Positions 4,409 to 20,028 of a stretch of DNA of 64,000 nucleotides are shown in pieces (the first letter of the stretch is position 1; every line of letters starts with the position of its first letter). Location of the stretch: NCBI GenBank assembly GCA_030649895.1, contig JAUSEX010000026.1, positions 16,823 through 80,822 of the forward strand. The letters run 5' to 3'. This DNA comes from Candidatus Omnitrophota bacterium. Its GTDB lineage: Bacteria; Omnitrophota; Gorgyraeia; Gorgyraeales; Gorgyraeaceae. A model generated the notes under the pieces. It ran no database searches. It was not told the DNA's origin and was given only the letters and a program-made list of their open reading frames with translations. The translations under genes were made by a program, and so were the position numbers.

Positions 4409-6424
4409 TCAAATTGACCAGACAATACTAAGATTAATTTCTTTGCCGCTTGGGATCTCGAGGCTCCATCTGGGCAATATGCAGGACGCCTGAAAGTTGA
4501 GCTCGTAAGCCCTTTCAGACTGGGATACTGTCTTGACCGGGAAATACCATATGTTTTCCGGCTTTTTTGAAAATGTAAAATAAATGTCTATCTCTTTTCC
4601 TGAATCCTTTATTGAAAACGAATCAGTCCCTGGAACCGCGCCCTTTTCATTGAGGCTAGCCAGAATTTTATCGCCTGCGGAATAACTATATCTATCTGAA
4701 TTTAAATAAGGCATTGTCAGATTGAATTCTATCCCAAAAACAGTCTCTATGGCGTCCTTGCTTAAATTTCTTAAACTATACAATATTTCTACCTGCTTCC
4801 TGCCTTTTAATTTTATTTCTTTTGTAACAGCTATGGCCTTACCATCCGCTTTACCTTCCCTCGCAAGCGCAACTTTATCTTTTCCCTTATTAGCCTTATA
4901 ACTTGCATTTATAAAATCTCCTGATTCTTTAGACTTACAATCTATAAAATCGTCTAACCCTGTTGACCTATCGATAAAATGGTCTATAAGGCATCCTCTT
5001 ACATGGCTATCATAACAAAATTCGGATTTAAGCCCCGGGTCGATAACCTTGGTATCTTCGTGAATAGTGCGCACAGCTTTTGCGTCACCGGATTCCCCCA
5101 TCTTTGCCAGTATTTTTTTGTGATACGTTTCTTCATGCCTCGCTATCGAATTGATAAGGTTCGTAGATACTTTTTTTGCGTCCAATTCCCTTATTATCCC
5201 GCCTTTGTCAGGGTCTATACACAAAGAAATCTCTTCATTCTCAATAATAAATGCCTTTTTGCCGTCCTCATAAAAATCTAACTCTTTTATCTCGACCCAG
5301 CCTTTTTTAGCTTTATGTAAAATCTTGTCTGCTATTTTTTCAGCATTTATAAGATGCTCGTAGATAGCCTTCCTTAAATGATAAAGATATAGCCCTCCGA
5401 ATACGCCATGCCAGTAAGCGCAGTTACATTGGCCTTTATATAATTCCCGTAGAGCCAGTTTTGGCTGAAGGCCGAAGGCTGAAGGCTTAATAGAATTTAC
5501 TTTTTTGCTCACATAATGCATTTTTCTGGCCATCTGATTGGCTTCAGGATAAATTCTCAGGAAATTCAGCCATGAACCATGCGACCACTCCATCATCTCC
5601 TGATATGACGCGTCAGGTATCCTTATTTTTTTCACAGGCGAATTTGAATTCAGATAATCCGACAATTTAATAGTAACAACCCAATCCTTATTCCTGGTTA
5701 ATTCCTCAAAGAATTTATTAAGCCAGTTCTGCTTATAGACCCAGTCATAGGTGAAAGGCCATTCCCCGAATTTTTCAGCGTCATCTCCGTATGTAAACAA
5801 AGGCTCATGCCTTCTTGAAGAAATTCCTTTAAAATAATCCATGATCTCGCCTGGCATTTTAAAAGGTATCATGTAGCGCAGCCTTTTGCTTGAAGGGAAG
5901 ATAGCTATCTCTTTATTTTTTTCGCCTGTTGTAAAATAACCGAACAGTTCATCTATATGCAAACCTGCTTCTATAAAATGCTCATCGTCAAGAATAGAAT
6001 ATTTCATGCCGGCCTTATTGAAATCCTTGGCAAGTTCAGGAGCCCAAACCCTTTCAGGCGTCCACATGCCTTGGGCTTTTTGGCCGAATCGTTTTTTTAC
6101 ATAATCAGCCATCATCTTTATCTGGCCGATCCTGTCAATTTCCGGTATGCTTGTAAAAATAGGTTCGTAGTAACCGCCTCCTATGATTTCCACCTGGCGC
6201 CTGTCAACCATGGCTTTAACTCTGTCCATATAATCAGGATGCTTGTCCTCAAAATAATCCAGAAGACATCCTGAAAAATGAAACGCCATTTTTATATCAG
6301 GGTATTTCTCGAATACGTCAAGGAAAGGCTTATAGCAATTTTGATAGGCCCTCTCTACAATATTATCAAAATTACCTACAGGCTGGTGAAAATGCAAACA
6401 CATCCCAAAGTAAACTTTATTCAT
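4409..6424 (-). CDS. GH57 4-α-glucanotransferase (Thermococcus litoralis-type)
   Basis: HFHQP, the GGGYYEP nucleophile region and the DDAEKFG and CNCAYWHG motifs are collinear with the characterised GH57 4-α-glucanotransferase. Confidence 0.8.
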   Translation of the reverse strand: MNKVYFGMCLHFHQPVGNFDNIVERAYQNCYKPFLDVFEKYPDIKMAFHFSGCLLDYFEDKHPDYMDRVKAMVDRRQVEIIGGGYYEPIFTSIPEIDRIGQIKMMADYVKKRFGQKAQGMWTPERVWAPELAKDFNKAGMKYSILDDEHFIEAGLHIDELFGYFTTGEKNKEIAIFPSSKRLRYMIPFKMPGEIMDYFKGISSRRHEPLFTYGDDAEKFGEWPFTYDWVYKQNWLNKFFEELTRNKDWVVTIKLSDYLNSNSPVKKIRIPDASYQEMMEWSHGSWLNFLRIYPEANQMARKMHYVSKKVNSIKPSAFGLQPKLALRELYKGQCNCAYWHGVFGGLYLYHLRKAIYEHLINAEKIADKILHKAKKGWVEIKELDFYEDGKKAFIIENEEISLCIDPDKGGIIRELDAKKVSTNLINSIARHEETYHKKILAKMGESGDAKAVRTIHEDTKVIDPGLKSEFCYDSHVRGCLIDHFIDRSTGLDDFIDCKSKESGDFINASYKANKGKDKVALAREGKADGKAIAVTKEIKLKGRKQVEILYSLRNLSKDAIETVFGIEFNLTMPYLNSDRYSYSAGDKILASLNEKGAVPGTDSFSIKDSGKEIDIYFTFSKKPENIWYFPVKTVSQSERAYELNFQASCILPRWSLEIPSGKEINLSIVWSI

Positions 6425-6435
6425 ATATATAACCC

Positions 6436-6479
6436 ATCCGACTCACGAAGTCGCCATACGGCGACTTCGTGAGTCGGAT
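6436..6479. repeat. Perfect 20-bp-stem hairpin (ATCCGACTCACGAAGTCGCC-atac-GGCGACTTCGTGAGTCGGAT) directly after the glgA stop. Family-2 CCGACTC..GAGTCGG element with an inner palindrome
   Basis: Read from the sequence. Related shorter hairpins are at 24885-24907 and 58572-58596. Confidence 0.7.
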
Positions 6480-6487
6480 AAGGTTCT

Positions 6488-7924
6488 TTATAGGTTTTTA
6501 TATAGTTTCAGATATTTTTCTGCTGATGATTCCCAGGAAAAATCGCAGGATACGCAGTTTTTGAGAAGCGCGCCCCAAAGTTTTTTATCCTTAAACGTGG
6601 CTACTGCTTCTTTAATGGCCTCTAAAAACGCCTCATTGGTAGCGTCTTTAAATTTGAACCCGTTTCCTTTTTTAGCGGAAGGGTCGAAATTCTGTATAGT
6701 ATCGTCCAGTCCGCCCACCGCCCTTACCACGGGCACGGTCGCATATTTCAGGCTATACATCTGATTTAGTCCGCAAGGCTCATATCTGGAAGGCATTAAA
6801 AACATATCTGCCCCAGCCTCTATTTTATGAGACAGGGCATTGTCAAATTTTATACTGACGCCTACATTGCCCTTATGCTTCTTAGCCATATCCTGAAATA
6901 TCTTATTATATTTTTCGTCGCCGAACCCAAGGATTACAAAATCAGAATCTTTCAGTATATCCTTCATGATATTTACAACCAAGTCTATGCCTTTCTGTTC
7001 CGCGAGACGGGTTATCATCGCTAGAATCGGCCTCTTTGCGTTATATTTTATTTCAAATGTCTTGGCAAGGTCTTTTTTGCATTCTTCCTTAGCTTTCAAA
7101 TCCTCTTCGTTGAATTTCTTAGCTATAAACTGGTCCACTGCCGGATTCCAGACAGAATAATCAACTCCATTCACTATCCCATGAAGGTCTTTTTCTCTGG
7201 TCTTTAACAAGCCATCCAGCCCGCATCCGAATTCAGTAGTCAGGATTTCTTTGCTATAGCCCTTGCTCACAGTGCTTATCGCGTCTGAAAAAACTACGCC
7301 TGTTTTCATAAAGCTTATCTTATCCCAGAATTCAATCTTGTCCTGATTAAACAAATCCCAGGATATATCAAGATACGGAACTACATCTTTGATAAAAAGC
7401 CCTTGATAAGCCATGTTATGTATCGTGAACAGCACTTTTACATTATTAAACAACGGGTCATCTTTATAATGGGTCTTTATATATAAAGGCACCAGGCCTG
7501 ACTGCCAATCATTGCAATGAAATATGTCCTGTCTGCCTATGTAAGGTATAGACGCCAGTATTGCCTTTGCGTAAAAACCGAACCTAAAGGCATTGTCCTG
7601 GTAATCGCCCTTAGGCGTGCCGTATAAAAATTCCCTGTCGTAATATTCATTTTTCTCTATAAAATACACGTCCACGCCGTTATGTTTTAAAAGGAGCAGA
7701 TTGAAAAGCTCTTCCCTGTTATTTATCTTCAAAGAGATATTTTTCTTAAACATAACGGGCTTAAAACCGTTTTTCTTAACCAACTGATAGAAAGGCATGA
7801 TCGTACTCGTCTTATGGCCTTTTTTAACAATAGCCTCTGGCAGCGCACCTACTACATCAGCTAAACCGCCGGTCTTAGCGAACGGAAAAACCTCCGGGGA
7901 AATAAATAAAATGTTCATTTTCAT
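6488..7924 (-). CDS. glgA: Glycogen (starch) synthase, GT5
   Basis: N-terminal KTGGLADV motif, about 478 aa. Confidence 0.9.
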   Translation of the reverse strand: MKMNILFISPEVFPFAKTGGLADVVGALPEAIVKKGHKTSTIMPFYQLVKKNGFKPVMFKKNISLKINNREELFNLLLLKHNGVDVYFIEKNEYYDREFLYGTPKGDYQDNAFRFGFYAKAILASIPYIGRQDIFHCNDWQSGLVPLYIKTHYKDDPLFNNVKVLFTIHNMAYQGLFIKDVVPYLDISWDLFNQDKIEFWDKISFMKTGVVFSDAISTVSKGYSKEILTTEFGCGLDGLLKTREKDLHGIVNGVDYSVWNPAVDQFIAKKFNEEDLKAKEECKKDLAKTFEIKYNAKRPILAMITRLAEQKGIDLVVNIMKDILKDSDFVILGFGDEKYNKIFQDMAKKHKGNVGVSIKFDNALSHKIEAGADMFLMPSRYEPCGLNQMYSLKYATVPVVRAVGGLDDTIQNFDPSAKKGNGFKFKDATNEAFLEAIKEAVATFKDKKLWGALLKNCVSCDFSWESSAEKYLKLYKNL

Positions 7925-7989
7925 CCTTTCTTTGCCTATCCCGCTCTCCGGACGGGAATCATTCTGTCCGGGGGAACGGGATCAAGCTG

Positions 7990-9201
7990 TCATTGCAGAA
8001 TTTCGTCCCTGATTTTGCTGGCTATATGCCTTGCAGCAATCACTTTCCCGTAGCATTTTTTCTTTTCGAAATTCCTGCACCCTGAGCTGGCAACTGCCAG
8101 GTACGCATTAAACACTACTTCCTCTTGAAGGATAAGGCCTTTATTTACAAGATTTTCGCTCCACATCCTGCCTTTATTAGCCCACCAGAACTGGCAGCTG
8201 TGCAAAGCCATGTCCAGGTTTTCCCTGGCTGTATTAAAAAATTGCGCTGACTTTTCATTATCATTCTTATCTTCCGCTTCCCGGAATATCTCCAGGCATG
8301 TATCCATATATTCCCACTGCAGCCTGTGGATTGTATTGTGAGGCGTGTTCCATAGTGGATAATAGTTTCCCGCCATTATTTCTTCATTGGAGGTGCTCCA
8401 GGAAGAAGGCCTGGGAGGCTTTACCTTAACTGCTGGAAATATTTCCGATAAATCGCTGATCTTAACCACCTTTACTTCCTTTGAATCTCTTATTATTTCA
8501 TACGCTTTCCCCAAAAACATATTTTCCCAGCCATGGATATGATGGCCGAACGTTTCCGCGTCCATAGCCGTTATTATATAAGCATTTTCCTTGCCTTCCG
8601 CCAATTCTTTAATCCTTGACACAAACCCCGCGGCATCTATATTTTTAAAACTTATCATATTGCTGATTATATCGTCTCTGAAAAATACCTTCATGGAACC
8701 TGAGCCAAGCTTAAAATTTGACGTATAATCCATAGGCCATTTCCCCTGGCATGCGATCCCGCTCACTATAACCCACTCATAACCCATGCCTCTTACAATA
8801 GAGCCTGCTGCGTCAGAGTAGCACATCTCTGGCGGGAAAAATCCTTTTGGCTTATAGCTGTCTTTAAAAAAAGACAGGTTTGTTTTTTTATTCAGCTCTA
8901 TCTGCCTCCTGGCTTCATTCTCGGGTATCAAAGGTAGTATCGCGTGAAATTTCGCTGATTCTGTAAATTCTATCTGTCCAAGCCTGCCTAGTTCCATAAG
9001 GCCGGTTGGGACATCTCCAAAGCCATGATCAGCCAGCATCTCAGTCAGCACCCCGCACATATTTATCGTAACCCTGGATTCGGGATGATCTTTAAAGACC
9101 TTAACCAGAGGCCTGTAAGATTCTTCACAAATCTTTGCCAATACGCCATGCGACTGCGTCGGAGGTTGATAAAAATGTAAAAGCGGCGCCCAATATATCA
9201 T
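7990..9201 (-). CDS. Glycoside hydrolase family 57 protein of unknown specificity (about 400 aa class)
   Basis: N-terminal HFYQP motif and a DAETFGHH catalytic-Asp region. It overlaps the DUF2934 gene by 4 nt (ATGA). Confidence 0.7.
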   Translation of the reverse strand: MIYWAPLLHFYQPPTQSHGVLAKICEESYRPLVKVFKDHPESRVTINMCGVLTEMLADHGFGDVPTGLMELGRLGQIEFTESAKFHAILPLIPENEARRQIELNKKTNLSFFKDSYKPKGFFPPEMCYSDAAGSIVRGMGYEWVIVSGIACQGKWPMDYTSNFKLGSGSMKVFFRDDIISNMISFKNIDAAGFVSRIKELAEGKENAYIITAMDAETFGHHIHGWENMFLGKAYEIIRDSKEVKVVKISDLSEIFPAVKVKPPRPSSWSTSNEEIMAGNYYPLWNTPHNTIHRLQWEYMDTCLEIFREAEDKNDNEKSAQFFNTARENLDMALHSCQFWWANKGRMWSENLVNKGLILQEEVVFNAYLAVASSGCRNFEKKKCYGKVIAARHIASKIRDEILQ

Positions 9202-9386
9202 TTCATACCTAGTTCTTCTTTAGCTAATCTTTCAGCTTTAAGCCAGTCTTCCAGATCGTTTCCTGACTTACAGCCCCTTTTTTCATAAATCTCATACGCC
9301 TTTTTCTGGACTAGCTGCATAAATTCTTCGCGGCTTACCCTGTTTTCATTATCCAGCGACAGTATCTTTTTTAGTTTCTTTAACAT
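9198..9386 (-). CDS. DUF2934 family small protein (62 aa)
   Basis: KKAYEIYEKRG....GNDLEDWLKAE matches the DUF2934 signature. It is translationally coupled (ATGA overlap) to the downstream GH57 gene. Confidence 0.6.
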   Translation of the reverse strand: MLKKLKKILSLDNENRVSREEFMQLVQKKAYEIYEKRGCKSGNDLEDWLKAERLAKEELGMK

Positions 9387-9446
9387 TTATCCTCCTCTGT
9401 TACGTTTCATTGACTATATCAGATAACAAAATCTCTGTCAACGAGT

Positions 9447-10775
9447 CTATCCCAGCGCTTCCATGCCCCTGCGGCAAATCTCCTTTGCGTAATCTGTCCA
9501 TGCGCCTGTGCCCCAGTATCGGAAGCAGCTGGTCTGGGATAATAATAGATAAAGAAGCGCCTTTCTGTAGGGAACAGTTTGAAGCCGCCCTCTAACTATT
9601 TCATTGTCAAATTTTTTATGAAATGCCGCGCTAAGCCGGGTTATAGGATCCATTATATCTTTATATCCGCTCACCCAATCTTTATCATTTGTCCAGGACG
9701 CCTTTTCCAGGCTAAAGCCAGGATATTTTTGTTTTGCTTTCTCAATAGCCATGTCAGCTGCGCCAGGAGAATATCCTTTTATGAATTCCCAGATCCTAGC
9801 CTGAGAAATCGGTTGCACCGGCATAAAAGAATTTTCTTTAAGGCCTGAGTTTTTTACAAATTCAAGATATTCTGTAGCGTTCATGCTGACTACGCCTTCC
9901 CTGCCTATTTCCTGAAAAACTATTTTATACATATTCGGAAACTCGTTCATCATGACTCCGCCGTTTTCCCCATCCCCTATCTGTGCCACAAAAGGCGGCA
10001 GATCTACCCCGCAATATTTTTCATTGCCAAGGCCTTTAGCTTCATAATACGGCTGCATCTGCCCGATCAGCTTATTGTCAGAACCCTGGGTTTTTATAAC
10101 GGCTATAATTTCAATCTTTTCCCCTAGAGAATTTTTAGCGACTAATTTGTGCGGAAAATGCGGCCTTCTTACAGGCGTGCCGTCGAGATTCTCTATTGTA
10201 TGCTCCTGGACCATGAGCCATTTATATCCACACTCTTTCAGGGCCTTTATATATTCAAAACACACATCGGGATGTATGGGAAGGTGCATCTCAGGCGCAG
10301 AAAAACCCTTCACCCTCTCAAGCGCTTTCTGACCGAATATTGAGGCAAAATGCTCTCGCCATTCTTGTATATGAAGCCTGATATCCGGGACAGGCGTAGA
10401 GCTGACAACGGCGTGCGACCACATTGTCCCGAGCCATTCAACATAGTTATAATATTTTTTGTCACAGGTCACAAGTTTCAAATTTTCCAGGACCTTTTCT
10501 TCGCCCATGTCTTTAAGGCCCCAGAGAAGGTTTCCCGAATAATCCAGCATAATCCTTGGATCTTTACCTTGACTGGAAAGTTCTCTTATAAAATCAGATA
10601 TCCTGGTATAGCAATTCAAAAATACAGGCGCATTGTGATTATCCCCTGTATTCTGATGCTCCATCATATACTGCAGATTGGAAATTAGCTTTGCCGTCCT
10701 GAGATCCTCGCCGCCTGCAGGAATAATAGGCTGATGCATATGAAGCGCTACGCCAAAACATGATTGTATCTTCAT
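9447..10775 (-). CDS. Glycoside hydrolase family 57 protein (third paralog, unknown specificity)
   Basis: HMHQP, a GFSAPEMHLP nucleophile-like region and GDGENGG. It overlaps the upstream branching enzyme by 4 nt. Confidence 0.7.
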   Translation of the reverse strand: MKIQSCFGVALHMHQPIIPAGGEDLRTAKLISNLQYMMEHQNTGDNHNAPVFLNCYTRISDFIRELSSQGKDPRIMLDYSGNLLWGLKDMGEEKVLENLKLVTCDKKYYNYVEWLGTMWSHAVVSSTPVPDIRLHIQEWREHFASIFGQKALERVKGFSAPEMHLPIHPDVCFEYIKALKECGYKWLMVQEHTIENLDGTPVRRPHFPHKLVAKNSLGEKIEIIAVIKTQGSDNKLIGQMQPYYEAKGLGNEKYCGVDLPPFVAQIGDGENGGVMMNEFPNMYKIVFQEIGREGVVSMNATEYLEFVKNSGLKENSFMPVQPISQARIWEFIKGYSPGAADMAIEKAKQKYPGFSLEKASWTNDKDWVSGYKDIMDPITRLSAAFHKKFDNEIVRGRLQTVPYRKALLYLLLSQTSCFRYWGTGAWTDYAKEICRRGMEALG

Positions 10776-12397
10776 GCCACGCCTTCCTTTATTTTTGCCT
10801 GGATATAGTATTCAGCGCAATCCATGTCAGAAAAAATGTTATCTCTCGATTCGACTTCCCGAAGCCATTCTCCTTCAATAGATCCGGCAAGCATGCCATT
10901 ATAAATATGCGTGAATCTGTTTATATGAAGCTTCACCCTTTTATCGGCATACTCTACCATGGTGCCTGTTTTCATTATAAACGGCCAATCGCTTGCCTGC
11001 GCCAAAAGAAGCTCTCTAGCTGCCTGATTCAGCGCCCGCCTCGCAAGCTCGTTTTTGCCATTATTCATGCAATTAGAAAATTTTCCGGCCAGCTCTTTCA
11101 TCCTCTCGCCTGCGACATGCAAATGCCTGTATATCCAATCATTGCTGCCTTCCAGCCAGACTTCGTTATAACCTTTATAACCCCACGTAGATGTTGACGG
11201 AACAGACATTTGATTTACCGAATATTCCCTCAGGTAATCTGAAGGCGTAGCAAGTTTTACTGTCTTCTGATCATATGCGATTTTACGAATCAGAAAATCT
11301 ATCCACATCGGGCCTTCGAACCACCAGTGGCCGAATAACTCCGCGTCATAAGGAGAAATAATCATGGGCTTTCTGTCCATATGATACGCGACATGCTCTA
11401 TCTGTTTTTCCCGGTTAAACATAAAATTCCCTGCGTGCATAGCTGCCTTTTCCTTTGCCCATTCAGGGACATATGGCTCTTTATGATCGGTATTTCCTGT
11501 AATCCTCCAGTATTTAAGGCCCGTATTTATTCTGAATCCTATCGGATGAATGTAGGGTTTTATATAGTCGTATTCCAATTCATATCCTATATCCCTGTAG
11601 TATTCCCTGTAATCGGAGTCTCCCGGATAACCTTCTTTTGAGCTCCACACCTGTTTGGAAGATTCCCAATCTCTTCCAAATGCTGCAACGCCTGAAGGAC
11701 AGTACAGAGGCGCGTATACGCTATATCTCGGTTCTGGATCCGCATTTACAATACCATGCGAATCTACAAAGAAATATTTAATGCCTGCTTCTGCCAAAAA
11801 ATTATCAACGCCAGGAGTATATCCGCATTCAGGCAGCCAGAACCCTACGGGGTCTCTGCCAAATGTTTTTCTGTAATGATCCACTCCAATCTTTACCTGA
11901 GCCTCTGCGTCTGTAGGATTTACGCTTAATATAGGCAAAAATCCATGAGTAGCGCACGAAGCCAGGATCTCTACGAAACCAAGATCCTGGAATTTCTTAA
12001 ACGCAGCCACCAGATCTTTTTTATATTTACCTACAAATACCTCTTTCGCCTCTACAAATTTCCTGTAATACATCAGAGCGAGGCCGTGATATTTAGGGTC
12101 GAAACCCGTGCGCTGGACTTCCTTGTCTGCGAGTTCGATTAATTTATCAATATGCCTTATATATCTATTCTGGAGAAGCTCATCCCGGAGCATTGACGCC
12201 AATGTGGGCGTCAGGGACATTGTTATGCGGAAATCCACATGGTCTTCTACTAATTTTTCAAAAACCTGAATCAGCGGTATATAAGTTTCTGTAATGGCTT
12301 CATAGAGCCAGTTCTCCTCGAGAAAATCTTCCTCTTCAGGATGCCTGACAAATGGCAGGTGCGCGTGCAATACTAAACAAAGATAACCTTTATGCAT
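10772..12397 (-). CDS. GH57-type 1,4-α-glucan branching enzyme
   Basis: LHAHLPFVRH, PYDAELFGHWWFEG and EASDWPF-like motifs are collinear with the Thermus and Thermococcus GH57 branching enzymes. Confidence 0.85.
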   Translation of the reverse strand: MHKGYLCLVLHAHLPFVRHPEEEDFLEENWLYEAITETYIPLIQVFEKLVEDHVDFRITMSLTPTLASMLRDELLQNRYIRHIDKLIELADKEVQRTGFDPKYHGLALMYYRKFVEAKEVFVGKYKKDLVAAFKKFQDLGFVEILASCATHGFLPILSVNPTDAEAQVKIGVDHYRKTFGRDPVGFWLPECGYTPGVDNFLAEAGIKYFFVDSHGIVNADPEPRYSVYAPLYCPSGVAAFGRDWESSKQVWSSKEGYPGDSDYREYYRDIGYELEYDYIKPYIHPIGFRINTGLKYWRITGNTDHKEPYVPEWAKEKAAMHAGNFMFNREKQIEHVAYHMDRKPMIISPYDAELFGHWWFEGPMWIDFLIRKIAYDQKTVKLATPSDYLREYSVNQMSVPSTSTWGYKGYNEVWLEGSNDWIYRHLHVAGERMKELAGKFSNCMNNGKNELARRALNQAARELLLAQASDWPFIMKTGTMVEYADKRVKLHINRFTHIYNGMLAGSIEGEWLREVESRDNIFSDMDCAEYYIQAKIKEGVA

Positions 12398-12405
12398 AGC
12401 TATAT

Positions 12406-12486
12406 AATAGGGACGGTTCTATAAGTAAAGCTAGATATGTCCCTTTAGGGGACATATCTCCGATTGGCTCTAGAACCGTCCCTATT
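12406..12486. repeat. TAGGGAC-arm palindromic element copy 2. Outer 16-bp inverted repeat AATAGGGACGGTTCTA..TAGAACCGTCCCTATT enclosing an inner 11-bp-stem hairpin (AGATATGTCCC-tttag-GGGACATATCT). It overlaps the DUF4912 stop
   Basis: Read from the sequence. It shares the terminal AATAGGGAC with copies 1 and 3. Confidence 0.7.
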
Positions 12487-13723
12487 CTGTTTTTCTTTCT
12501 ACAGTTGTAGAAATTTTTCTTGTCTCTACTTTATCGTGCGAAGTTGCGGTAAAAGGCAATGGGATTTTCGCGTCCGGAAGCGCAAACCTCATGCTGAAAG
12601 TCCCGTCCGGTTTAAGGTCTATTTTTTTATCTCCCAGTTTTACCTCCGCGTCAGGCTCTGTGCGGCCATACACTATAAGCTCTGCGCCTATCTCAAAAAA
12701 GAATTTGCGTTTCTTATCCGGCTGGACAAATTCACTCGCGCCTCCCTGCAAGTTCTCGCTCCCCCCAAGATATGCAAATTCAGATGCCCCGATCATAATC
12801 TTTCTGCCAAATTTCACGTTGTGCAGCCTTTTGAAATAAAGCAGGTCGTGCCATTCTTTTCCTGACATATTGGAATATAAATACCTATATAGCTTCTTTC
12901 TTGAAATCCTGGAAAACATCGCATCTCTTAATAAAGGAGAAAGCCTTGAATAATAAGCCCTCAGGTCCGCCTCGGTAAGATATATCTTTCTTCGTTTAGA
13001 TACAGCCGAGTAACTGAACCTGCCTGCTGCGTCATATTGAACCCCTCGGCTTCGCTCAAAGCAGGCAGCTCCTTCGGTCTTCATAGGCGTAGCCTGTTCG
13101 CTACCTGCCTCCTGAGTCAGGTCCATCCATATCTCTTCAAATCTGCTAGATGTGCCAGATCTAGGGGTATGTACGAAATTAGACCTGGCCATAGGAAAAA
13201 ATCTTCCGGAGTGATGAACTATACCTATCTCTCCCAGATACGAGGCATTATCATTCCACAGACTTATATACCAGTTATTAGAATAGCGGCCCACCTCTAT
13301 GTCAAACCAATGGTTAGCGTTAAACCCGTTAAAATCTTTATATGTGACGTCATACATGCGGACAACAAACCTTGCGCCGTCCAGATTCCCGCCTAATTTG
13401 CGTTTAACGTCCTCTATCGAACTCTCCGCTATTTCCCAGTAAGCGTATATCCAGAAAGGGTCTTTTGCTATTAAAGTAATTCTTGTTGTAGTGTTATACG
13501 AAGGAAGTTCATATTCATTTATTGCCGCAGGCCTAAACGCGCCTTTACGTTCTTGTATTACGCAGGAAGGTTCCTGAACAGTAGCTGCTGGCCTTAAAAC
13601 AACCGGTTGCTTATATTTTATCCTTCTCTTAACAGTCCTGACAGTAGCCTCTCTGCCGTCTCTGTAAACACGCTCTATGGGTTTTCTTTTCTTAAGTTTT
13701 ATTTTTTTACCTGGCATATACAT
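12482..13723 (-). CDS. DUF4912 domain protein with a Lys/Arg-rich N-terminal tail and an uncharacterised C-terminal domain
   Basis: DPFWIYAYWEI and the downstream block match the DUF4912 signature. Its 5' end overlaps the GT4 gene by 17 nt. Confidence 0.65.
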   Translation of the reverse strand: MYMPGKKIKLKKRKPIERVYRDGREATVRTVKRRIKYKQPVVLRPAATVQEPSCVIQERKGAFRPAAINEYELPSYNTTTRITLIAKDPFWIYAYWEIAESSIEDVKRKLGGNLDGARFVVRMYDVTYKDFNGFNANHWFDIEVGRYSNNWYISLWNDNASYLGEIGIVHHSGRFFPMARSNFVHTPRSGTSSRFEEIWMDLTQEAGSEQATPMKTEGAACFERSRGVQYDAAGRFSYSAVSKRRKIYLTEADLRAYYSRLSPLLRDAMFSRISRKKLYRYLYSNMSGKEWHDLLYFKRLHNVKFGRKIMIGASEFAYLGGSENLQGGASEFVQPDKKRKFFFEIGAELIVYGRTEPDAEVKLGDKKIDLKPDGTFSMRFALPDAKIPLPFTATSHDKVETRKISTTVERKTE

Positions 13724-14867
13724 CCATAACCTGGTCAGCTACAATATCCCAGGAAAAAGCGGTCTCAACTGCAATTCTTCCGTTAGCCCCCATCCATCTT
13801 GCGTGGTCAAAATCTGAAAATACCGTGCCTATGCCCCATGCTATTGACTCGGGATTTGCGTATACCTTTAGACCTGTGATATCATGCCATATTATTTCCC
13901 CTGGCCCGCCGTTTGAGGTGGCGACTACAGGTTTTCCTGCGCTCCACGCCTCCAGCAAAACTATGCCGAACGGCTCGTTTCTTGAAGGCATGCACACAAC
14001 ATCCGCAGCTTTATAAATATCAGAGAGCTTCCAGCCATTGCTAAAGCCTATAAACCTTGTAGCGTGATGAACGCCTATCTCTTTTGCCCTGTCTTCCACG
14101 CACCAGCGCATTTCTCCGTCGCCTACAAAAACAAATTTTGCATTATTGTGGTATCTAAGTATGTGAGGCATGGCTTCTATCAAAAGATCCGGGCCTTTTT
14201 GATAAACCATCCTGCCGACAAAAAGCACCATCGGATCTAACGGCCCAATACCATAATAATTCCTGACAGCCGCAGAGTCTATCCACCCGTCAAAATTCTT
14301 GCAATTGACGCCATTATACACTACGTCCACTTTCCAATCAGAGGTATTATACATCCATTGTATTTCTCCCTTGAGAGCCCTAGACACAGCTATCACATGA
14401 TCAGCGCAGTATGTGCCATGCCTTTCATGATCGCGAATCCTAGCAGAATTTCCGTCATTAAAATTATTACCGCACCTGCCGTATTCAGTCGAATGGATTG
14501 TCAGTACAGCTTTGGAGGGACGCACATGCTTTATCCAGACCATTGCGTTTGACGTAAGCCAATCGTGGCTGTGTATCACGTCAAACGGACCCGTAACGCC
14601 CTCTGTACGAAAAAACGTATCCACAAAAGAGCGGCACATGTTATTTATCTCTTCTACGAAATCAGGATTCTTATCAAAGGGGCATCTGTGGTAATGCACT
14701 CCTTGAATGCACTCATACCATGGCTGGTTAGCGCTTCCCATCCGCGTAAAAACATGGACTTCATTACCTTTGCGCTCAAGGGCTGCTGCGAGCTCTGTAA
14801 CGTGCACGCCCACCCCGCCCACGCAAATAGAATGCATAGATTCCCAGGAAAATATCGCTATTCTCAT
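13707..14867 (-). CDS. Glycosyltransferase family 4 (archaeal glycogen-synthase-like or GlgM-like retaining GT)
   Basis: N-terminal GT4 Rossmann domain (RIAIFSWESMHSICVGGVGVHV) and a C-terminal GT1-type domain with the E..G-P motifs. Confidence 0.75.
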   Translation of the reverse strand: MRIAIFSWESMHSICVGGVGVHVTELAAALERKGNEVHVFTRMGSANQPWYECIQGVHYHRCPFDKNPDFVEEINNMCRSFVDTFFRTEGVTGPFDVIHSHDWLTSNAMVWIKHVRPSKAVLTIHSTEYGRCGNNFNDGNSARIRDHERHGTYCADHVIAVSRALKGEIQWMYNTSDWKVDVVYNGVNCKNFDGWIDSAAVRNYYGIGPLDPMVLFVGRMVYQKGPDLLIEAMPHILRYHNNAKFVFVGDGEMRWCVEDRAKEIGVHHATRFIGFSNGWKLSDIYKAADVVCMPSRNEPFGIVLLEAWSAGKPVVATSNGGPGEIIWHDITGLKVYANPESIAWGIGTVFSDFDHARWMGANGRIAVETAFSWDIVADQVMDVYAR

Positions 14868-14880
14868 AAATTATTTCCGC

Positions 14881-15000
14881 GTCAGTTTCGCAATTGCTCC
14901 TCGACTCGCTTCGCTCATTGCCTCCTCCTGTCGCTCACTCGAAGAATACTGTTCGAGCGAAACCACGAAATGGCTGAATCGAGAATTTTCGCGTTATTCC
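14881..15000. repeat. Degenerate tandem or inverted copies of the GTTCGAGCG family-3 repeat, filling the CBM48–GT4 intergenic spacer
   Basis: TGTTCGAGCGAAACCACGAAATGGCTGAATCGAGAATTTT aligns with the copies at 18957 and 35817. The upstream half is an inverted relative. Confidence 0.5.
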
Positions 15001-15005
15001 GCGAT

Positions 15006-15320
15006 TTAAAGTTCTATCACTGAGTTTTCCGAGCCGAAAGTATTTACCACGAAAAGATTGTTTAAGGGGTCTCTCTGCCACTGGCCATCAACTAAATATT
15101 TATACTCGTAACGGCCGGATTTTAGGGTTAAGTCTCTTTTCCAGACTCCATCTTTAGACTTTTTGAGGCTGGCGTTTGATGCGTCCCATGAATTAAAATC
15201 GCCCGCAAGGCGAACATCCTTTGCGTTTGGAGCGCTTATCTTAAAAGCCACCTTTTTTGTTAAATTTTTCTTAACAGCCATTTCCCCCTCCTTTTTTTGG
15301 CACCACGCACCATTCTGCAT
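15006..15320 (-). CDS. Stand-alone CBM48 / AMPK-β-like glycogen-binding domain protein (about 100 aa)
   Basis: VRLAGDFNSWD...W...L.L..G.YEYKYLVDGQWQRDP is the CBM48 signature. The start could instead be the internal Met (MAVKKN). Confidence 0.7.
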   Translation of the reverse strand: MQNGAWCQKKEGEMAVKKNLTKKVAFKISAPNAKDVRLAGDFNSWDASNASLKKSKDGVWKRDLTLKSGRYEYKYLVDGQWQRDPLNNLFVVNTFGSENSVIEL

Positions 15321-15408: not shown

Positions 15409-16059
15409 CTATATAGTGGTTATGCCTTCTTTGAGTGCGTACCTGATGAGGTCTGCGTGGCGATGAATGCCCAATTTCTGCATTATATTGTTTCTATGCG
15501 CTAAAGCGGTTTTTAAAGAAATCTTAAGGTGGGCAGCAACTTCTTTATTTGTATAGCCCTCAGCAACGAGCTGGAGGACCTCTCTTTCCCTGTCAGTAAG
15601 GCTGACTATCTTTTTTCCCTTTATCTTTTGGCCTCTTGAATCAATATAATCCTGTATCACAAAAGTGGATATCCTCTGGCTGAGAAAATATTCATCTTCA
15701 TAAACTACGCGTATAGCCTGGATGATTTCATCAGCCGCGGAATCTTTTAAAACATACCCTCTGATACCTAAACTCAACGCCCTTTCTATAAACGCCCTGT
15801 TGTCATGCATGCTCAATATAATAATTTTATTTTTTGGATTAATCTGCATTATCTGGCTTGAGGCCTCTAAGCCATTCAATATCGGCATTGTTATGTCAAT
15901 TATAAATATATCTGCGGAACTTTTTTTTGCTATATCCACGGCCTCTTTGCCGTTCGATGCCTCTGCGACAACCTTCATATCCTGTTCCTGGAATATCACG
16001 GCGCTCAAACCCTGCCTTACTATCGCATGATCATCTGCCAGAACTATCTCTATAGCCAT
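15409..16059 (-). CDS. Response regulator, NarL/FixJ (LuxR-HTH) family
   Basis: REC domain plus a C-terminal LuxR HTH (LTDREREVLQLVAEGYTNKEVA). Confidence 0.9.
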   Translation of the reverse strand: MAIEIVLADDHAIVRQGLSAVIFQEQDMKVVAEASNGKEAVDIAKKSSADIFIIDITMPILNGLEASSQIMQINPKNKIIILSMHDNRAFIERALSLGIRGYVLKDSAADEIIQAIRVVYEDEYFLSQRISTFVIQDYIDSRGQKIKGKKIVSLTDREREVLQLVAEGYTNKEVAAHLKISLKTALAHRNNIMQKLGIHRHADLIRYALKEGITTI

Positions 16060-16103
16060 AATTTTTTCTCTATCGCCTCCGTTCGCAGAACGAAGGCAGT
16101 AAC

Positions 16104-16781
16104 TTACATTTCTTCGATTATCGGGAAAGTCACATTTATCTTCGTTCCGTTTTTAGGCTTAGACTCCAGTAAAAATTTACCGTTCAATAAATCCACCCGC
16201 TCCCTCATGCCGCGCAAACCAAGCTTATCTATATTCGCGTCTTTGAAAAATGCCCCTGTGTCGAACCCTATGCCATTGTCCTCTATTGTAAGAATTATTT
16301 CCCCTCCCTTAAGCAATAAATCTATCTTTACATTTTTCGCCTTCGCGTGCTTTACAATATTATTAAACGCCTCCTGAATAACCCTGTAAAGAGTTATTGC
16401 CATATCGTCTTTTATGCTAACGCCGGCCAGGTTTTCTCTAAATTTTATATTTAAAGGGTGCGATTTTGTATAATGGGAAAAAAGTTCTCGCAAAACCGAT
16501 GGCAGGCCCAGCATACCTAACTCTGCAGGCCTCAGGTCTATAAAAAGCGTTCTGAATCTTTCCGCTGTATTAGCCAGGATTGTTTTTGCGTCTTTTATTA
16601 TGCTAAGGGCGCTATCAAAATTGCGCTTCGATATTTCTTTTTCAATTATATTCAATGCTGAGCCAAGAGATACCGAAAACTGGCCTATCTCATCATGAAG
16701 ATCCCGCGATATCCTGTGCCTTTCCTCTTCCTGGATAGCGAGTATCTTCTTCGAAAATTCCCTTGCTGCTATATCTTTCAT
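16104..16781 (-). CDS. Cytoplasmic histidine kinase (HisKA_3 + HATPase_c) with no membrane or sensor domain
   Basis: LHDEIGQ H-box and N, G1, G2 boxes. It is 225 aa with no hydrophobic segments. Confidence 0.85.
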   Translation of the reverse strand: MKDIAAREFSKKILAIQEEERHRISRDLHDEIGQFSVSLGSALNIIEKEISKRNFDSALSIIKDAKTILANTAERFRTLFIDLRPAELGMLGLPSVLRELFSHYTKSHPLNIKFRENLAGVSIKDDMAITLYRVIQEAFNNIVKHAKAKNVKIDLLLKGGEIILTIEDNGIGFDTGAFFKDANIDKLGLRGMRERVDLLNGKFLLESKPKNGTKINVTFPIIEEM

Positions 16782-16836: not shown

Positions 16837-17931
<1,095 letters not shown>

Positions 17932-18936
17932 TTACTTTGCCGTGCAAGCTTCTCTCAAGCATTTAGCGGTCAGTTCAGGCGAGGTAGGGTTTATATAAAG
18001 GCCTGAACCCCATTCAAAACCAGCCACATTTGTCAATTTCGGCATTATCTCCAAGTGCCAGTGGAATTCTTCATAAATACCGTCTCTTATGGGCGCTGTG
18101 TGAATTATAAAATTATACGCAGGATCATTGAGCCTCAGCTTAAGCCTCAAAAGAATTTCTCTTAATATGCCCGCCATATCATAAATCGTAGAATCGTCTA
18201 TAAGCTTAAATTCTGGGCTATGCGCCTTAGGCAATATCCATGTCTCAAAAGGAAAGCGGGACACAAAAGGACAAAATGCGATAAAATGTTTATTTTCTAA
18301 AATTATTCTTTCTTTTTCCTGCTGTTCCTGGGATATCATATCGCAAAAAACACATCTCTCCTTGTACTTAAAATAATTCTGAGCGCCCTTAAGTTCTTCC
18401 TTGACCCTTTTCGGGACAATAGGCAGCGCAACAAGCTGGGTATGGGAATGCTCCAGAGACGCGCCCGCAGCTTCTCCGTGATTTTTAAAAAGCAGGATAT
18501 ACCTGAATCTCGTATCGTTTTCCAGGTCCACGCTCCTTGATTTATACTTAGATATCACATTGACTATCTCGTCCTGCGTCAGATCAGCAAGATCCTTATT
18601 GTGGTCTGTGTTTTCAACTATAACTTCATGAGCGCCAATGCCGTTTGACATATCAAACATACCGATAGCGCGATTATCCAGATCTCCCTCTATTTTCAAG
18701 GCGGGAAATTTATTCGATACCACTCTGACTGTCCAGCCAGGCGTGTCAGGCCTTGTTTTAATGTCCCTTACAGCCTCTATTTCCGGCGGAGTCATCTTTT
18801 CGTTCCCCTGGCAAAACGGGCAAGTCCCGCCTTTTTTAGTCTGCGGCTTAATATCAAACTCATCGCATCTCTTTGGATTAGAGACAGCTATCTCTACCCA
18901 TCTTCCCGTTATCGGATCGCGCCTTAATTGAGACAT
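17932..18936 (-). CDS. galT: Galactose-1-phosphate uridylyltransferase-like HIT-family nucleotidyltransferase (intact HxHxQ)
   Basis: CPFCQGNE zinc motif and an intact EHSHTQ active site. The track start at 18948 is a TTG. The ATG at 18936 gives MSQLRRDPITGRW, which parallels the paralog. Confidence 0.85.
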   Translation of the reverse strand: MSQLRRDPITGRWVEIAVSNPKRCDEFDIKPQTKKGGTCPFCQGNEKMTPPEIEAVRDIKTRPDTPGWTVRVVSNKFPALKIEGDLDNRAIGMFDMSNGIGAHEVIVENTDHNKDLADLTQDEIVNVISKYKSRSVDLENDTRFRYILLFKNHGEAAGASLEHSHTQLVALPIVPKRVKEELKGAQNYFKYKERCVFCDMISQEQQEKERIILENKHFIAFCPFVSRFPFETWILPKAHSPEFKLIDDSTIYDMAGILREILLRLKLRLNDPAYNFIIHTAPIRDGIYEEFHWHLEIMPKLTNVAGFEWGSGLYINPTSPELTAKCLREACTAK

Positions 18937-18956
18937 GTGTCCCTTCAATACTAGTT

Positions 18957-18999
18957 AATATTATTCGAGCGAGGCACCAAAAGTGCCGAGTCGAGAACT
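18957..18999. repeat. Family-3 repeat copy A (AATATTATTCGAGCGAGGCACCAAAAGTGCCGAGTCGAGAACT), abutting the galT paralog stop
   Basis: About 90% identical to the copy at 35817-35859. As RNA it contains a GGCAC/GUGCC hairpin. Confidence 0.65.
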
Positions 19000-20028
19000 T
19001 TATAGCACAACTTCCCGTAAATATTTCGCTGCTTCTTCCGGCGGAGTAGGATTTATATAAAAACCTGAACCCCATTCAAAACCAGCCACCTGAGTAATCC
19101 TGGGCATAACTTCTATATGCCAGTGATAATCTTCCTCGATAGTATGCCAATACCCAAGCCTCTTTGACCGCCTAAAGGGGGCCGTGTGCAGCATATAATT
19201 GTACGGCGGATCATTCAATGCCTTTGAAAGCTTTGCAAATACTGTCTTCAAAACACTTGCCAGGTCTTTTATCTCGTCGCCTTGTATGTTCATAAAATCC
19301 GCCCTGTGGACTTTTGGCATTATCCATATTTCAAAAGGGAATCTTGAGGCAAAAGGCGCTATCGCCACCACTGTTTTTGTATCCATGACAACCCTGGAGC
19401 CTGTATCTATTTCCTGGCTTATGATATCGCAGAAAATACATCTTTCTTTGTATTCAAAATAAAAGCGCGAACCCCTAAGCTCTTCCTTCACCCTGGTAGG
19501 GGTAACAGGTGTTGCGATAAGCTGAGACCTTAAATGTTTTGTCCTGCTGCTCCCGCCCGCTTTTAATCCATGATTCTTAAACAAAAGGCAGTATTTAAAC
19601 CGAATATCTTTCTCAAGCTCGCTAATACGATAAATAGAAGTATTAATGACATCCTGTATCTCAGGTTCTGATAACTGATATACATCCGTAAGATGTTTTG
19701 GAGATTCTATTATGATCTCATGCGCGCCTATAGGGTTCATAACATCGTACATCCCGACCCCGCGCCTGTTCAGGTCCCCTTCTATTATAAATTTAGGGGC
19801 TATGCTAGGGACAACCCTGACATTCCAGCCGGGCGTATCTTTCTTTGTGTCCGGCTTTCTGATCGCAAATATCTCCGCAGGGGTTTTATTTTCACGCCCC
19901 TCGCAAAAAGGGCATTCCATTTCAGGCTCATCCGCATGTTTTATATTAAAATCGCTCGGCCTTTTAGCCCTTTCAGTGGATATTATAACCCATCTTCCTA
20001 TTACCGGATCTCTTCTTAGTTCTGGCAT
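19000..20028 (-). CDS. GalT-like HIT-family paralog with the nucleophilic His replaced (HLRSQ instead of HxHxQ)
   Basis: Collinear with the adjacent galT and keeps CPFCEGRE. The active-site segment reads KHLRSQ, so the second His is Arg. Confidence 0.8.
   Translation of the reverse strand: MPELRRDPVIGRWVIISTERAKRPSDFNIKHADEPEMECPFCEGRENKTPAEIFAIRKPDTKKDTPGWNVRVVPSIAPKFIIEGDLNRRGVGMYDVMNPIGAHEIIIESPKHLTDVYQLSEPEIQDVINTSIYRISELEKDIRFKYCLLFKNHGLKAGGSSRTKHLRSQLIATPVTPTRVKEELRGSRFYFEYKERCIFCDIISQEIDTGSRVVMDTKTVVAIAPFASRFPFEIWIMPKVHRADFMNIQGDEIKDLASVLKTVFAKLSKALNDPPYNYMLHTAPFRRSKRLGYWHTIEEDYHWHIEVMPRITQVAGFEWGSGFYINPTPPEEAAKYLREVVL

Follow-up and report, generated by a model that had tools for sequence, protein, structure and literature searches.

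Reciprocal loss of active-site elements in a tandem pair of GalT-like genes of Omnitrophota suggests a heterodimeric nucleotidyltransferase

Results

Two GalT-like paralogs in tandem

The DNA analysed here, called the window below, is a stretch of 64,000 nucleotides (nt) of contig JAUSEX010000026.1 from a Candidatus Omnitrophota bacterium. Its minus strand carries two adjacent genes related to galactose-1-phosphate uridylyltransferase (GalT), which are the subject of this work; coordinates refer to the window unless another locus is named. We call the paralogs A, which has Arg at the position of the catalytic nucleophile, and B, which has His. In the list of open reading frames (ORFs), A lies at 19000-20028 on the minus strand, is transcribed first and encodes 342 amino acids (aa); B lies at 17932-18948 on the same strand and encodes 338 aa when read from a TTG codon. 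The start of B is probably ATG 18936 rather than TTG, giving 334 aa, because a ribosome-binding site (GAAGGGA) is found just 5' of this ATG. Both proteins contain the N-terminal domain PF01087 and the C-terminal domain PF02744 above the Pfam cutoffs, and they are collinear from end to end with 50% identity (E 3e-129). The sequence CPFC is present in each of them (A, 19903-19914; B, 18811-18822), as is a second CxxC. The Zn ligands are C39, C42, H112 and H165 in A and C43, C46, H116 and H167 in B. These positions (CxxC, His and the first His of the signature motif) are invariant in the 120 A-type and 120 B-type homolog clusters described below. The initial annotation of this DNA, made from the sequence without database searches, had described tandem collinear GalT-like paralogs that both keep CxxC, and this description holds. 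The two copies and their motifs also stand as it gave them, but their order does not, since the Arg copy that it called copy 2 precedes the other in transcription.

The signature of these enzymes is HxHxQ, in which the second His is the nucleophile. B carries the intact signature as HSHTQ (H167-S-H169-T-Q171; 18436-18450, minus strand), whereas A reads HLRSQ (H165-L-R167-S-Q169; 19522-19536, minus strand). The Arg codon of A, at 19528-19530, is AGG, which is two substitutions away from any His codon; a sequencing error is therefore not the explanation of the Arg. Residue correspondence was established through HMMER alignments to three independent solved homologs. R167 of A is aligned with H186 of At5g18200 (1Z84; the mutant chain of 2H39 has Gly in this column), with the His of 6K5Z (Phe in the 6K9Z mutant) and with the nucleophilic H166 of Escherichia coli GalT (1HXP). 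The earlier proposal that the nucleophilic His is missing from copy 2 was thus borne out: a His in this position was named there as the contrary evidence, and the alignments to solved homologs place Arg in it.

An AlphaFold2 model of A, built from an alignment of 62 sequences, had a predicted local distance difference test (pLDDT) of 83.6 and a predicted template modelling score (pTM) of 0.87. When this model was used in a Foldseek search, the best matches were 1Z84, 2H39 and 1ZWJ, with template modelling (TM) scores of 0.76-0.87, followed by bacterial, archaeal and human GalT; 1Z84, 1HXQ and 5IN3 span TM scores of 0.68-0.87. In the predicted structure, the GalT/At5g18200 fold of A is confirmed.

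Conservation of the Arg copy

Conservation of A was assessed in its 120 best homolog clusters, which are Omnitrophota metagenome sequences with 60-89% identity. Arg occupies the nucleophile position in 115 of these 120 clusters, down to 60% identity, which answers the question, raised with the initial annotation, of whether the change from His to Arg is conserved in relatives. Among the A-type genes that were fetched as DNA, this Arg is encoded by CGT (14), CGC (10), CGA (2), CGG (1), AGG (2) and AGA (1). Mean pairwise identity is 0.611 for A-type and 0.575 for B-type proteins, and it is higher for A in 84% of genome pairs. The presence of Arg in 115 clusters, the use of all six Arg codons and the stronger conservation of A than of B together indicate that the Arg is selected for and is not decay.

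Lack of the nucleophilic His in other forms was also noticed elsewhere in the family. About 16 of 150 representatives at the 50% identity level are of this kind and read, for example, HPVSY, HSYSH, HCSSR, HSISE or HPLSQ; P0129, P0131, P0151, P0152 and P0169 are among them. Apparently, the nucleophile has been lost more than once, judging from these motifs. P0129 (HPVSY; locus L084, 5001-6026) was checked for pairing and proved to be a singleton with no partner GalT-like gene. It lies in an unrelated context, next to a pantothenate kinase and a Usp gene. As P0129 is unpaired, nucleophile loss elsewhere in the family seems to be a separate matter.

Reciprocal losses in A and B

A-type proteins, B-type proteins and 50 single-copy orthologs were compared at each alignment column, and the comparison was then made again with the 120 A and 120 B clusters. 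Among 133 columns with ancestral conservation, the losses specific to A number six and those specific to B five. All six A-only losses fall in two elements of the catalytic core, the NKFPA strand (E. coli N77, D78 and A81) and the ASLxHxH motif (E. coli C160, N162 and H166). The nucleotide strand of A-type proteins reads Ser-Ile-Ala/Ser at the Asn-Lys-Phe-Pro-Ala positions, with Ser in 112 of 120 A-type clusters versus Asn in all 120 B-type clusters. In the window, S75-I76-A77 of A (19798-19806, minus strand) stands in place of the ancestral Asn-Lys-Phe/Tyr nucleotide-binding strand (E. coli N77-D78-F79). The His nucleophile itself is present in 120 of 120 B-type clusters.

The B-only losses concern another part of the protein, as the two radical ones are the arginines of the N-terminal arm equivalent to E. 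coli R28 and R31. At the R28 position the B-type clusters have N in 30, H in 20, K in 18, E in 15 and D in 14 cases; at the R31 position they have K in 38, G in 23, R in 19, A in 13 and L in 10. The degenerate arm of B in the window reads N24-P-K-R27 (18868-18879, minus strand), and its ancestral first Arg is gone. A retains the arm as R20-A-K-R23 (19960-19971, minus strand), which the alignment to 1HXP equates with R28 and R31 of E. coli GalT and which is predicted to act in trans on the site of B. R20 is conserved in 120 and R23 in 118 of the 120 A-type clusters. A also keeps the sugar-binding loop, AGFEWGSGFY (19057-19086, minus strand), equivalent to E. coli Y316/E317/Q323 and predicted to be supplied to the partner subunit; its F, E, W and Y are invariant across the A-type clusters. 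Single-copy orthologs keep both the catalytic core and the arm, with Arg at the R28 and R31 equivalents in 49 and 47 of 50 sequences.

The known structures give these positions a meaning. At5g18200 and class I GalTs are homodimers with their active sites between the subunits. In E. coli GalT, Arg28, Arg31, Gly159 and Ser161 contact the substrate (PMC5081055). In human GALT, Arg48, the equivalent of R28, comes from the chain opposite to that of Gln188 and His186, and the glucose 1-phosphate (Glc-1-P) site is formed by the C-terminal loop of one chain together with Gln188 and Asn173 of the other (PMC5081055). A B:B dimer would thus lack the arm arginines in both of its sites and an A:A dimer would lack the nucleophile in both. 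The complementary losses therefore point to an obligate A:B heterodimer with a single composite site. The initial annotation had suggested a pair of one catalytic and one altered copy; the reciprocal losses, of the core in A and of the arm arginines in B, agree with it and make it more precise.

Tandem loci and fused forms

For a survey of tandem loci, one genome per species was scanned, followed by ORF and hidden Markov model analysis. A is directly 5' of B on the same strand in 30 of the 30 tandem loci found. The distance from the stop of A to the start of B is mostly between -17 and +9 nt, so the genes often overlap. Two A-type genes without a visible partner are located at a contig edge. 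In the window the spacer measures 51-63 nt, and it is absent in the 91%-identical relative L003, where the stop of A abuts the start of B. A hairpin-like repeat (cggcac-tttt-ggtgcc) lies in the spacer of the window (18949-18999). Neighbour-joining analysis placed the A-types and the B-types in one clade each, and the branching within the two clades is largely congruent, which indicates one old duplication inherited as a pair. Judging from these loci, the two-gene arrangement is conserved across the tandem-bearing Omnitrophota sampled. Outside the tandem group, a single His-type copy is found in, among others, Nitrospirota, Acidobacteriota, Zixibacteria, Elusimicrobia, Planctomycetota, Calditrichota and a few Omnitrophota.

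A single continuous ORF in GCA_003558915.1, at the same position 5' of gap-pgk-tpi-secG as the separate pair, encodes a fused A-B protein, P0121 (599 aa). The protein has a single N-terminal arm, a further degraded A half without CxxC and without HxRxQ, a short linker and an intact B half that begins at CxxC without an arm of its own; both sugar loops are kept. One arm and an armless B half is the layout that a model with the arm acting in trans predicts. Another fused protein, P0158 (871 aa), from a transcript of the euglenid Eutreptiella gymnastica, contains two complete GalT-like units in one chain with both HxHxQ motifs intact, a fused homodimer-like form in a eukaryote.

Relationship to At5g18200

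Sequence searches returned 1Z84 (At5g18200) as the best solved relative of both paralogs, with E values of 6.2e-74 for B and 5.6e-70 for A. The match to E. coli GalT is much weaker for both (E about 1e-20 to 1e-23). As in At5g18200, the sugar loop of A and B is shortened and lacks E. coli K311-V314. The kinship with ADP-glucose phosphorylase that the initial annotation had raised is in line with At5g18200 being the best match of A and B in sequence and of the A model in the fold search. At5g18200 is described as an ADP-glucose phosphorylase (McCoy et al. 2006, PMID 16519510, as cited in PMC6329318). Since the pair is closer to At5g18200 than to the GalT of the Leloir pathway and the family shows the glgA adjacency and fusions reported below, we propose by homology that it probably interconverts ADP-glucose plus inorganic phosphate (Pi) and Glc-1-P plus ADP through a nucleotidyl-His intermediate.

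Glycolytic and glucan genes around the pair

The neighbours of the pair are fmt, gap, pgk, tpi and glucan genes. Directly 3' of the pair lies gap (glyceraldehyde-3-phosphate dehydrogenase; 16837-17898, minus strand, from the ORF list). Of 29 tandem loci, 27 have gap in this position as well, in most cases with pgk and tpi behind it. The constant neighbour in Omnitrophota is thus gap-pgk-tpi and not the glucan genes as such.

In the window, an alpha-glucan module follows further 3' (4409-15320, minus strand), in which Pfam recognises a GH57 4-alpha-glucanotransferase, GlgA (GT5), three GH57 proteins including a branching enzyme, a DUF4912 protein and a GT4 protein; the module also includes a small protein resembling a carbohydrate-binding module (CBM). 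The order 3' of gap is a two-component pair, the CBM-like gene (15006-15320; its label was read from the sequence only), GT4, DUF4912, the GH57 branching enzyme, two GH57 genes, GlgA, the GH57 glucanotransferase, pgk and tpi. Ca. Gorgyraea atricola has fmt-A-B-gap-glgA-...-GH57-pgk-tpi. The two-component pair (15409-16781), which separates gap from the glucan module, was likewise read from the sequence, as a histidine kinase and a LuxR-type response regulator. A similar kinase lies 3' of gap only in the closest relative, L003, and most related loci go from gap to pgk-tpi or to glgA. Between two clear GH57 genes, a 442-aa protein (9447-10775) gives a weak GH57 match in its N-terminal part (E 3.5e-7), and the syntenic 440-aa protein of L087 has no Pfam match; the 442-aa protein may belong to the glucan module as a divergent GH57-like member.

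The association with glucan genes extends to single-copy members of the family. Of 50 single-copy loci (L032-L081), 23 have a glgA gene (GT5) on the same strand at a distance of no more than 400 nt; these come from many phyla, among them Elusimicrobia, Nitrospirota, Zixibacteria, Ignavibacteria, Calditrichota, Planctomycetota and Verrucomicrobiota. In L039, for example, the At5g18200-type gene occupies 6001-6990 and glgA starts at about 7088. GH57 genes are also frequent neighbours. A His-type GlgA-GalT-like fusion, P0149 (814 aa), represents a cluster of 19 members from many contigs, labelled Coprothermobacterota, and P0167 (875 aa) and P0259 (858 aa) are GH57-GalT-like fusions. These fusion sequences are Rosetta-stone links of the At5g18200-type family to glucan enzymes. 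The tie of the family to glycogen-type glucan metabolism is strong, and the link of the pair to glucan metabolism, put forward in the initial annotation as speculation, is supported by these adjacencies and fusions.

The statement in that annotation that the glucan module lacks glgC is not supported by comparison with relatives. No NTP_transferase gene was found among the window ORFs scanned. Two close relatives, L086 and L087, whose SBP protein is 87-88% identical, have the order GH57-glgA-GH57-pgk-tpi-secG-SBP-oppBCDF-glgC. Their glgC (L086, 15278-16495; L087, 15287-16639) lies about 3.7 kilobases past the SBP gene, which corresponds to the first gene at the left edge of the window, and scores 471-473 bits against TIGR02091 (cutoff 424.9). 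As relatives with the same gene order have glgC just past the edge, its absence here is almost certainly a window-edge effect. In a published metabolic table, GlgC is entered for most of the metagenome-assembled genomes of Ace Lake Omnitrophota, including Gorgyraea, whose GlgC is on the same contig as the glgA found here. The pair, according to these sequences, probably coexists with GlgC rather than replacing it.

Discussion

We consider it fairly probable that A and B are the subunits of a nucleotidyltransferase that is an obligate heterodimer with a single composite active site and belongs to the At5g18200 branch of the GalT/HIT family. That the two proteins dimerise with each other we infer from homology and from the reciprocal pattern of losses. 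A gene duplication in the ancestor of the tandem-bearing Omnitrophota would have been followed by the loss of complementary parts. B would have kept the elements that serve a site from its own chain, namely the nucleotide strand (Asn-Lys-Phe) and the HxHxQ motif, which is anchored by Zn and carries the nucleophilic His, and given up the arm arginines that reach into the site of the partner. A would have kept the arm arginines and the sugar-binding loop while its own nucleophile changed to Arg and its nucleotide strand was remodelled. The A:B dimer would then contain one complete site, made of the B core, the A arm and the A loop, and one dead site disabled from both sides, with B as the catalytic and A as a non-catalytic partner subunit. 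The complete site would form the nucleotidyl-His and interconvert ADP-glucose plus Pi and Glc-1-P plus ADP in glycogen-type glucan metabolism. As to the direction of the reaction, location next to lower glycolysis and thermodynamics favour phosphorolysis.

Several observations sit less easily with this heterodimer. Two A-type genes, in L006 (6001-7032) and L031 (6001-7017), have His (CAT) at the nucleophile position. Both keep the A-type Ser75, and L006 is nested among Arg forms in the tree; their His may be a reversion by one transition or an assembly error. The loss of the arm is partial, as B of the window keeps Arg at the second position (NPKR). The trans origin is documented for the R28 equivalent only and is assumed for the R31 equivalent from its position on the same arm. 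The sugar loop of B is also invariant, though it would serve only the dead site of the heterodimer; either the dead site could still bind a ligand or the loop could be structural. The P0121 fusion is known from a single contig. With regard to the reaction, B scores above the TIGR00209 galT cutoff, and the predicted substrate specificity rests on about 35-40% identity to one characterised plant enzyme.

The invariant B loop leads to the idea that the dead site has been turned into an allosteric site for a ligand such as phosphate or a sugar phosphate, so that A would be a regulatory subunit. This would extend the heterodimer explanation rather than exclude it. Conservation of the Arg in place of the nucleophile goes far beyond what mere inactivation needs; a Lys or Arg stands just before the HxR motif in 96 of 120 A-type clusters, at a position where Glu predominates in B-type and single-copy forms; Asn152, Gly158 and Gln169, which contact phosphate, are invariant in A-type clusters; and the B loop facing the dead site is the invariant one. 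The GlgC/GlgD pair and the small and large subunits of plant ADP-glucose pyrophosphorylase offer a precedent. However, the A half of P0121 has lost the pocket, yet both sugar loops are kept, which suggests that loop conservation is structural, and the ligand cannot be read from the sequence; we regard an allosteric A as possible but unlikely. Two bolder readings go further. The Arg-lined pocket of A may have become a sensor of Pi or sugar phosphate that tunes ADP-glucose turnover to glycolytic flux, which would fit the position 5' of gap-pgk-tpi. More widely, the At5g18200-type family may be a core part of bacterial glycogen metabolism that has gone unrecognised and may, together with GlgA, open a phosphorolytic route by way of ADP-glucose, in addition to glycogen phosphorylase or in its place (compare the glgA adjacency and the GlgA and GH57 fusions). 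We consider these readings quite doubtful.

It is also conceivable that the pair makes ADP-glucose from Glc-1-P and ADP or ATP for GlgA or the GT4 protein, in an organism devoid of GlgC. The window ORFs scanned, among which no NTP_transferase gene was found, would agree with this, and the adjacency and fusion to GlgA seen in the family are compatible with an enzyme that supplies GlgA with a nucleotide sugar. Net formation of glucan from Glc-1-P in the absence of ATP is, however, subject to the equilibrium that governs glycogen phosphorylase, and breakdown is favoured at cellular Pi. A bona fide glgC lies just past the window edge in close relatives with the same gene order, and GlgC is listed for most Omnitrophota genomes of the published table, Gorgyraea included; we give the substitution of GlgC only a small chance. 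A further possibility is that A is an independent enzyme working by a new non-covalent mechanism, a direct in-line transfer stabilised by the Arg, next to B as a self-sufficient homodimer. The strong purifying selection on A and its retention of both metal sites and most phosphate-contacting residues speak for this, but the nucleoside-binding Asn and an aromatic residue are lost in A too, the arm arginines that a B homodimer would need are lost in B, and strict co-occurrence, frequent overlap of the genes and the existence of a fusion all disagree with independence, which makes it very improbable. Finally, the pair might be an ordinary Leloir GalT with a decaying duplicate, or a sequencing artefact. 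Databases do label both genes galactose-1-phosphate uridylyltransferase, and B reaches 124.2 bits with TIGR00209 (cutoff 102.1; A, 99.9 bits). With NF008724, in contrast, B scores 143 and A 114 bits, below the cutoff of 448, and the match to At5g18200 is far stronger than that to E. coli GalT (E 1e-74 versus 1e-23). No galK, galE or galM was found among the annotated window genes or the Pfam-annotated related loci. A is more conserved than B and has six Arg codons in use. The pseudogene or decay, sequencing-error and canonical Leloir readings were rejected on conservation, codon usage, scores and gene context, and we find them scarcely credible.

The heterodimer proposed here shares with At5g18200 (1Z84, 2H39) the two CxxC/His metal sites and the shortened sugar loop, and its B subunit also shares the HxHxQ motif. 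In the At5g18200 homodimer the two sites are equivalent. Here the task would be divided between two diverged genes, with Arg instead of His186 in A and no more than one site that can be complete. The E. coli and human GalTs (1HXP, 1HXQ, 5IN3) have the same fold, the HxHxQ mechanism and composite sites using both chains. The pair differs from them in its distance (E 1e-20 to 1e-23), in its shorter sugar loop and in its gene context, which is glycolysis and glucan metabolism without Leloir genes.

Pairs of an active and an impaired paralog occur in other enzymes. In GlgC/GlgD of Firmicutes and in the small and large subunits of plant ADP-glucose pyrophosphorylase, a catalytic subunit is accompanied by a paralog that has lost catalytic residues. 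They resemble A and B in combining such paralogs within ADP-glucose metabolism, but they have an unrelated fold (NTP_transferase plus left-handed beta-helix), and each of their sites lies within one subunit without a reciprocal split. In trypanosomatid deoxyhypusine synthase and in S-adenosylmethionine decarboxylase (AdoMetDC) with its prozyme, a dead or impaired paralog is needed for the activity of its partner, with active sites at the interface. The likeness to these heteromers is in the mode of evolution only, as they are eukaryotic and belong to unrelated families.

The fold, the chemistry and the closest relative of the pair are already known. What appears to be new is the architecture of two genes for a single site, reached through reciprocal loss, and the association of the At5g18200-type family with glgA across phyla. 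Neither a heteromeric GalT/HIT pair nor the presence of GalT-like genes in bacterial glycogen clusters was found described in the literature searched, which did not include subscription journals. The At5g18200-type family and its association with glgA are both absent from a 2024 Chem Rev review of prokaryotic alpha-glucan enzymes. If our proposal is true, this would be the first heteromeric GalT/HIT nucleotidyltransferase in the literature searched. The divided site would also provide evolutionary confirmation of the residues that act across the dimer interface, which are debated for dominant-negative human galactosemia alleles. The annotation of the genes deserves correction, since both are labelled galactose-1-phosphate uridylyltransferase yet lie in a context of glycolysis and glycogen, and A, without the His, cannot be expected to form the covalent intermediate. 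The frequent adjacency to glgA across phyla, together with the GlgA fusion, offers a concrete bacterial setting in which the physiological role of ADP-glucose phosphorylase can be tested.

Other features of the window

A scan for promoters and terminators between 16700 and 20300 gave counts equal to those of shuffled sequence, so it says nothing about operon boundaries. Of the 60 non-overlapping window ORFs of at least 100 aa, 59 lie on the minus strand, and every 2-kilobase bin has a negative GC skew; the window in its entirety appears to belong to a single stretch of strong co-orientation.

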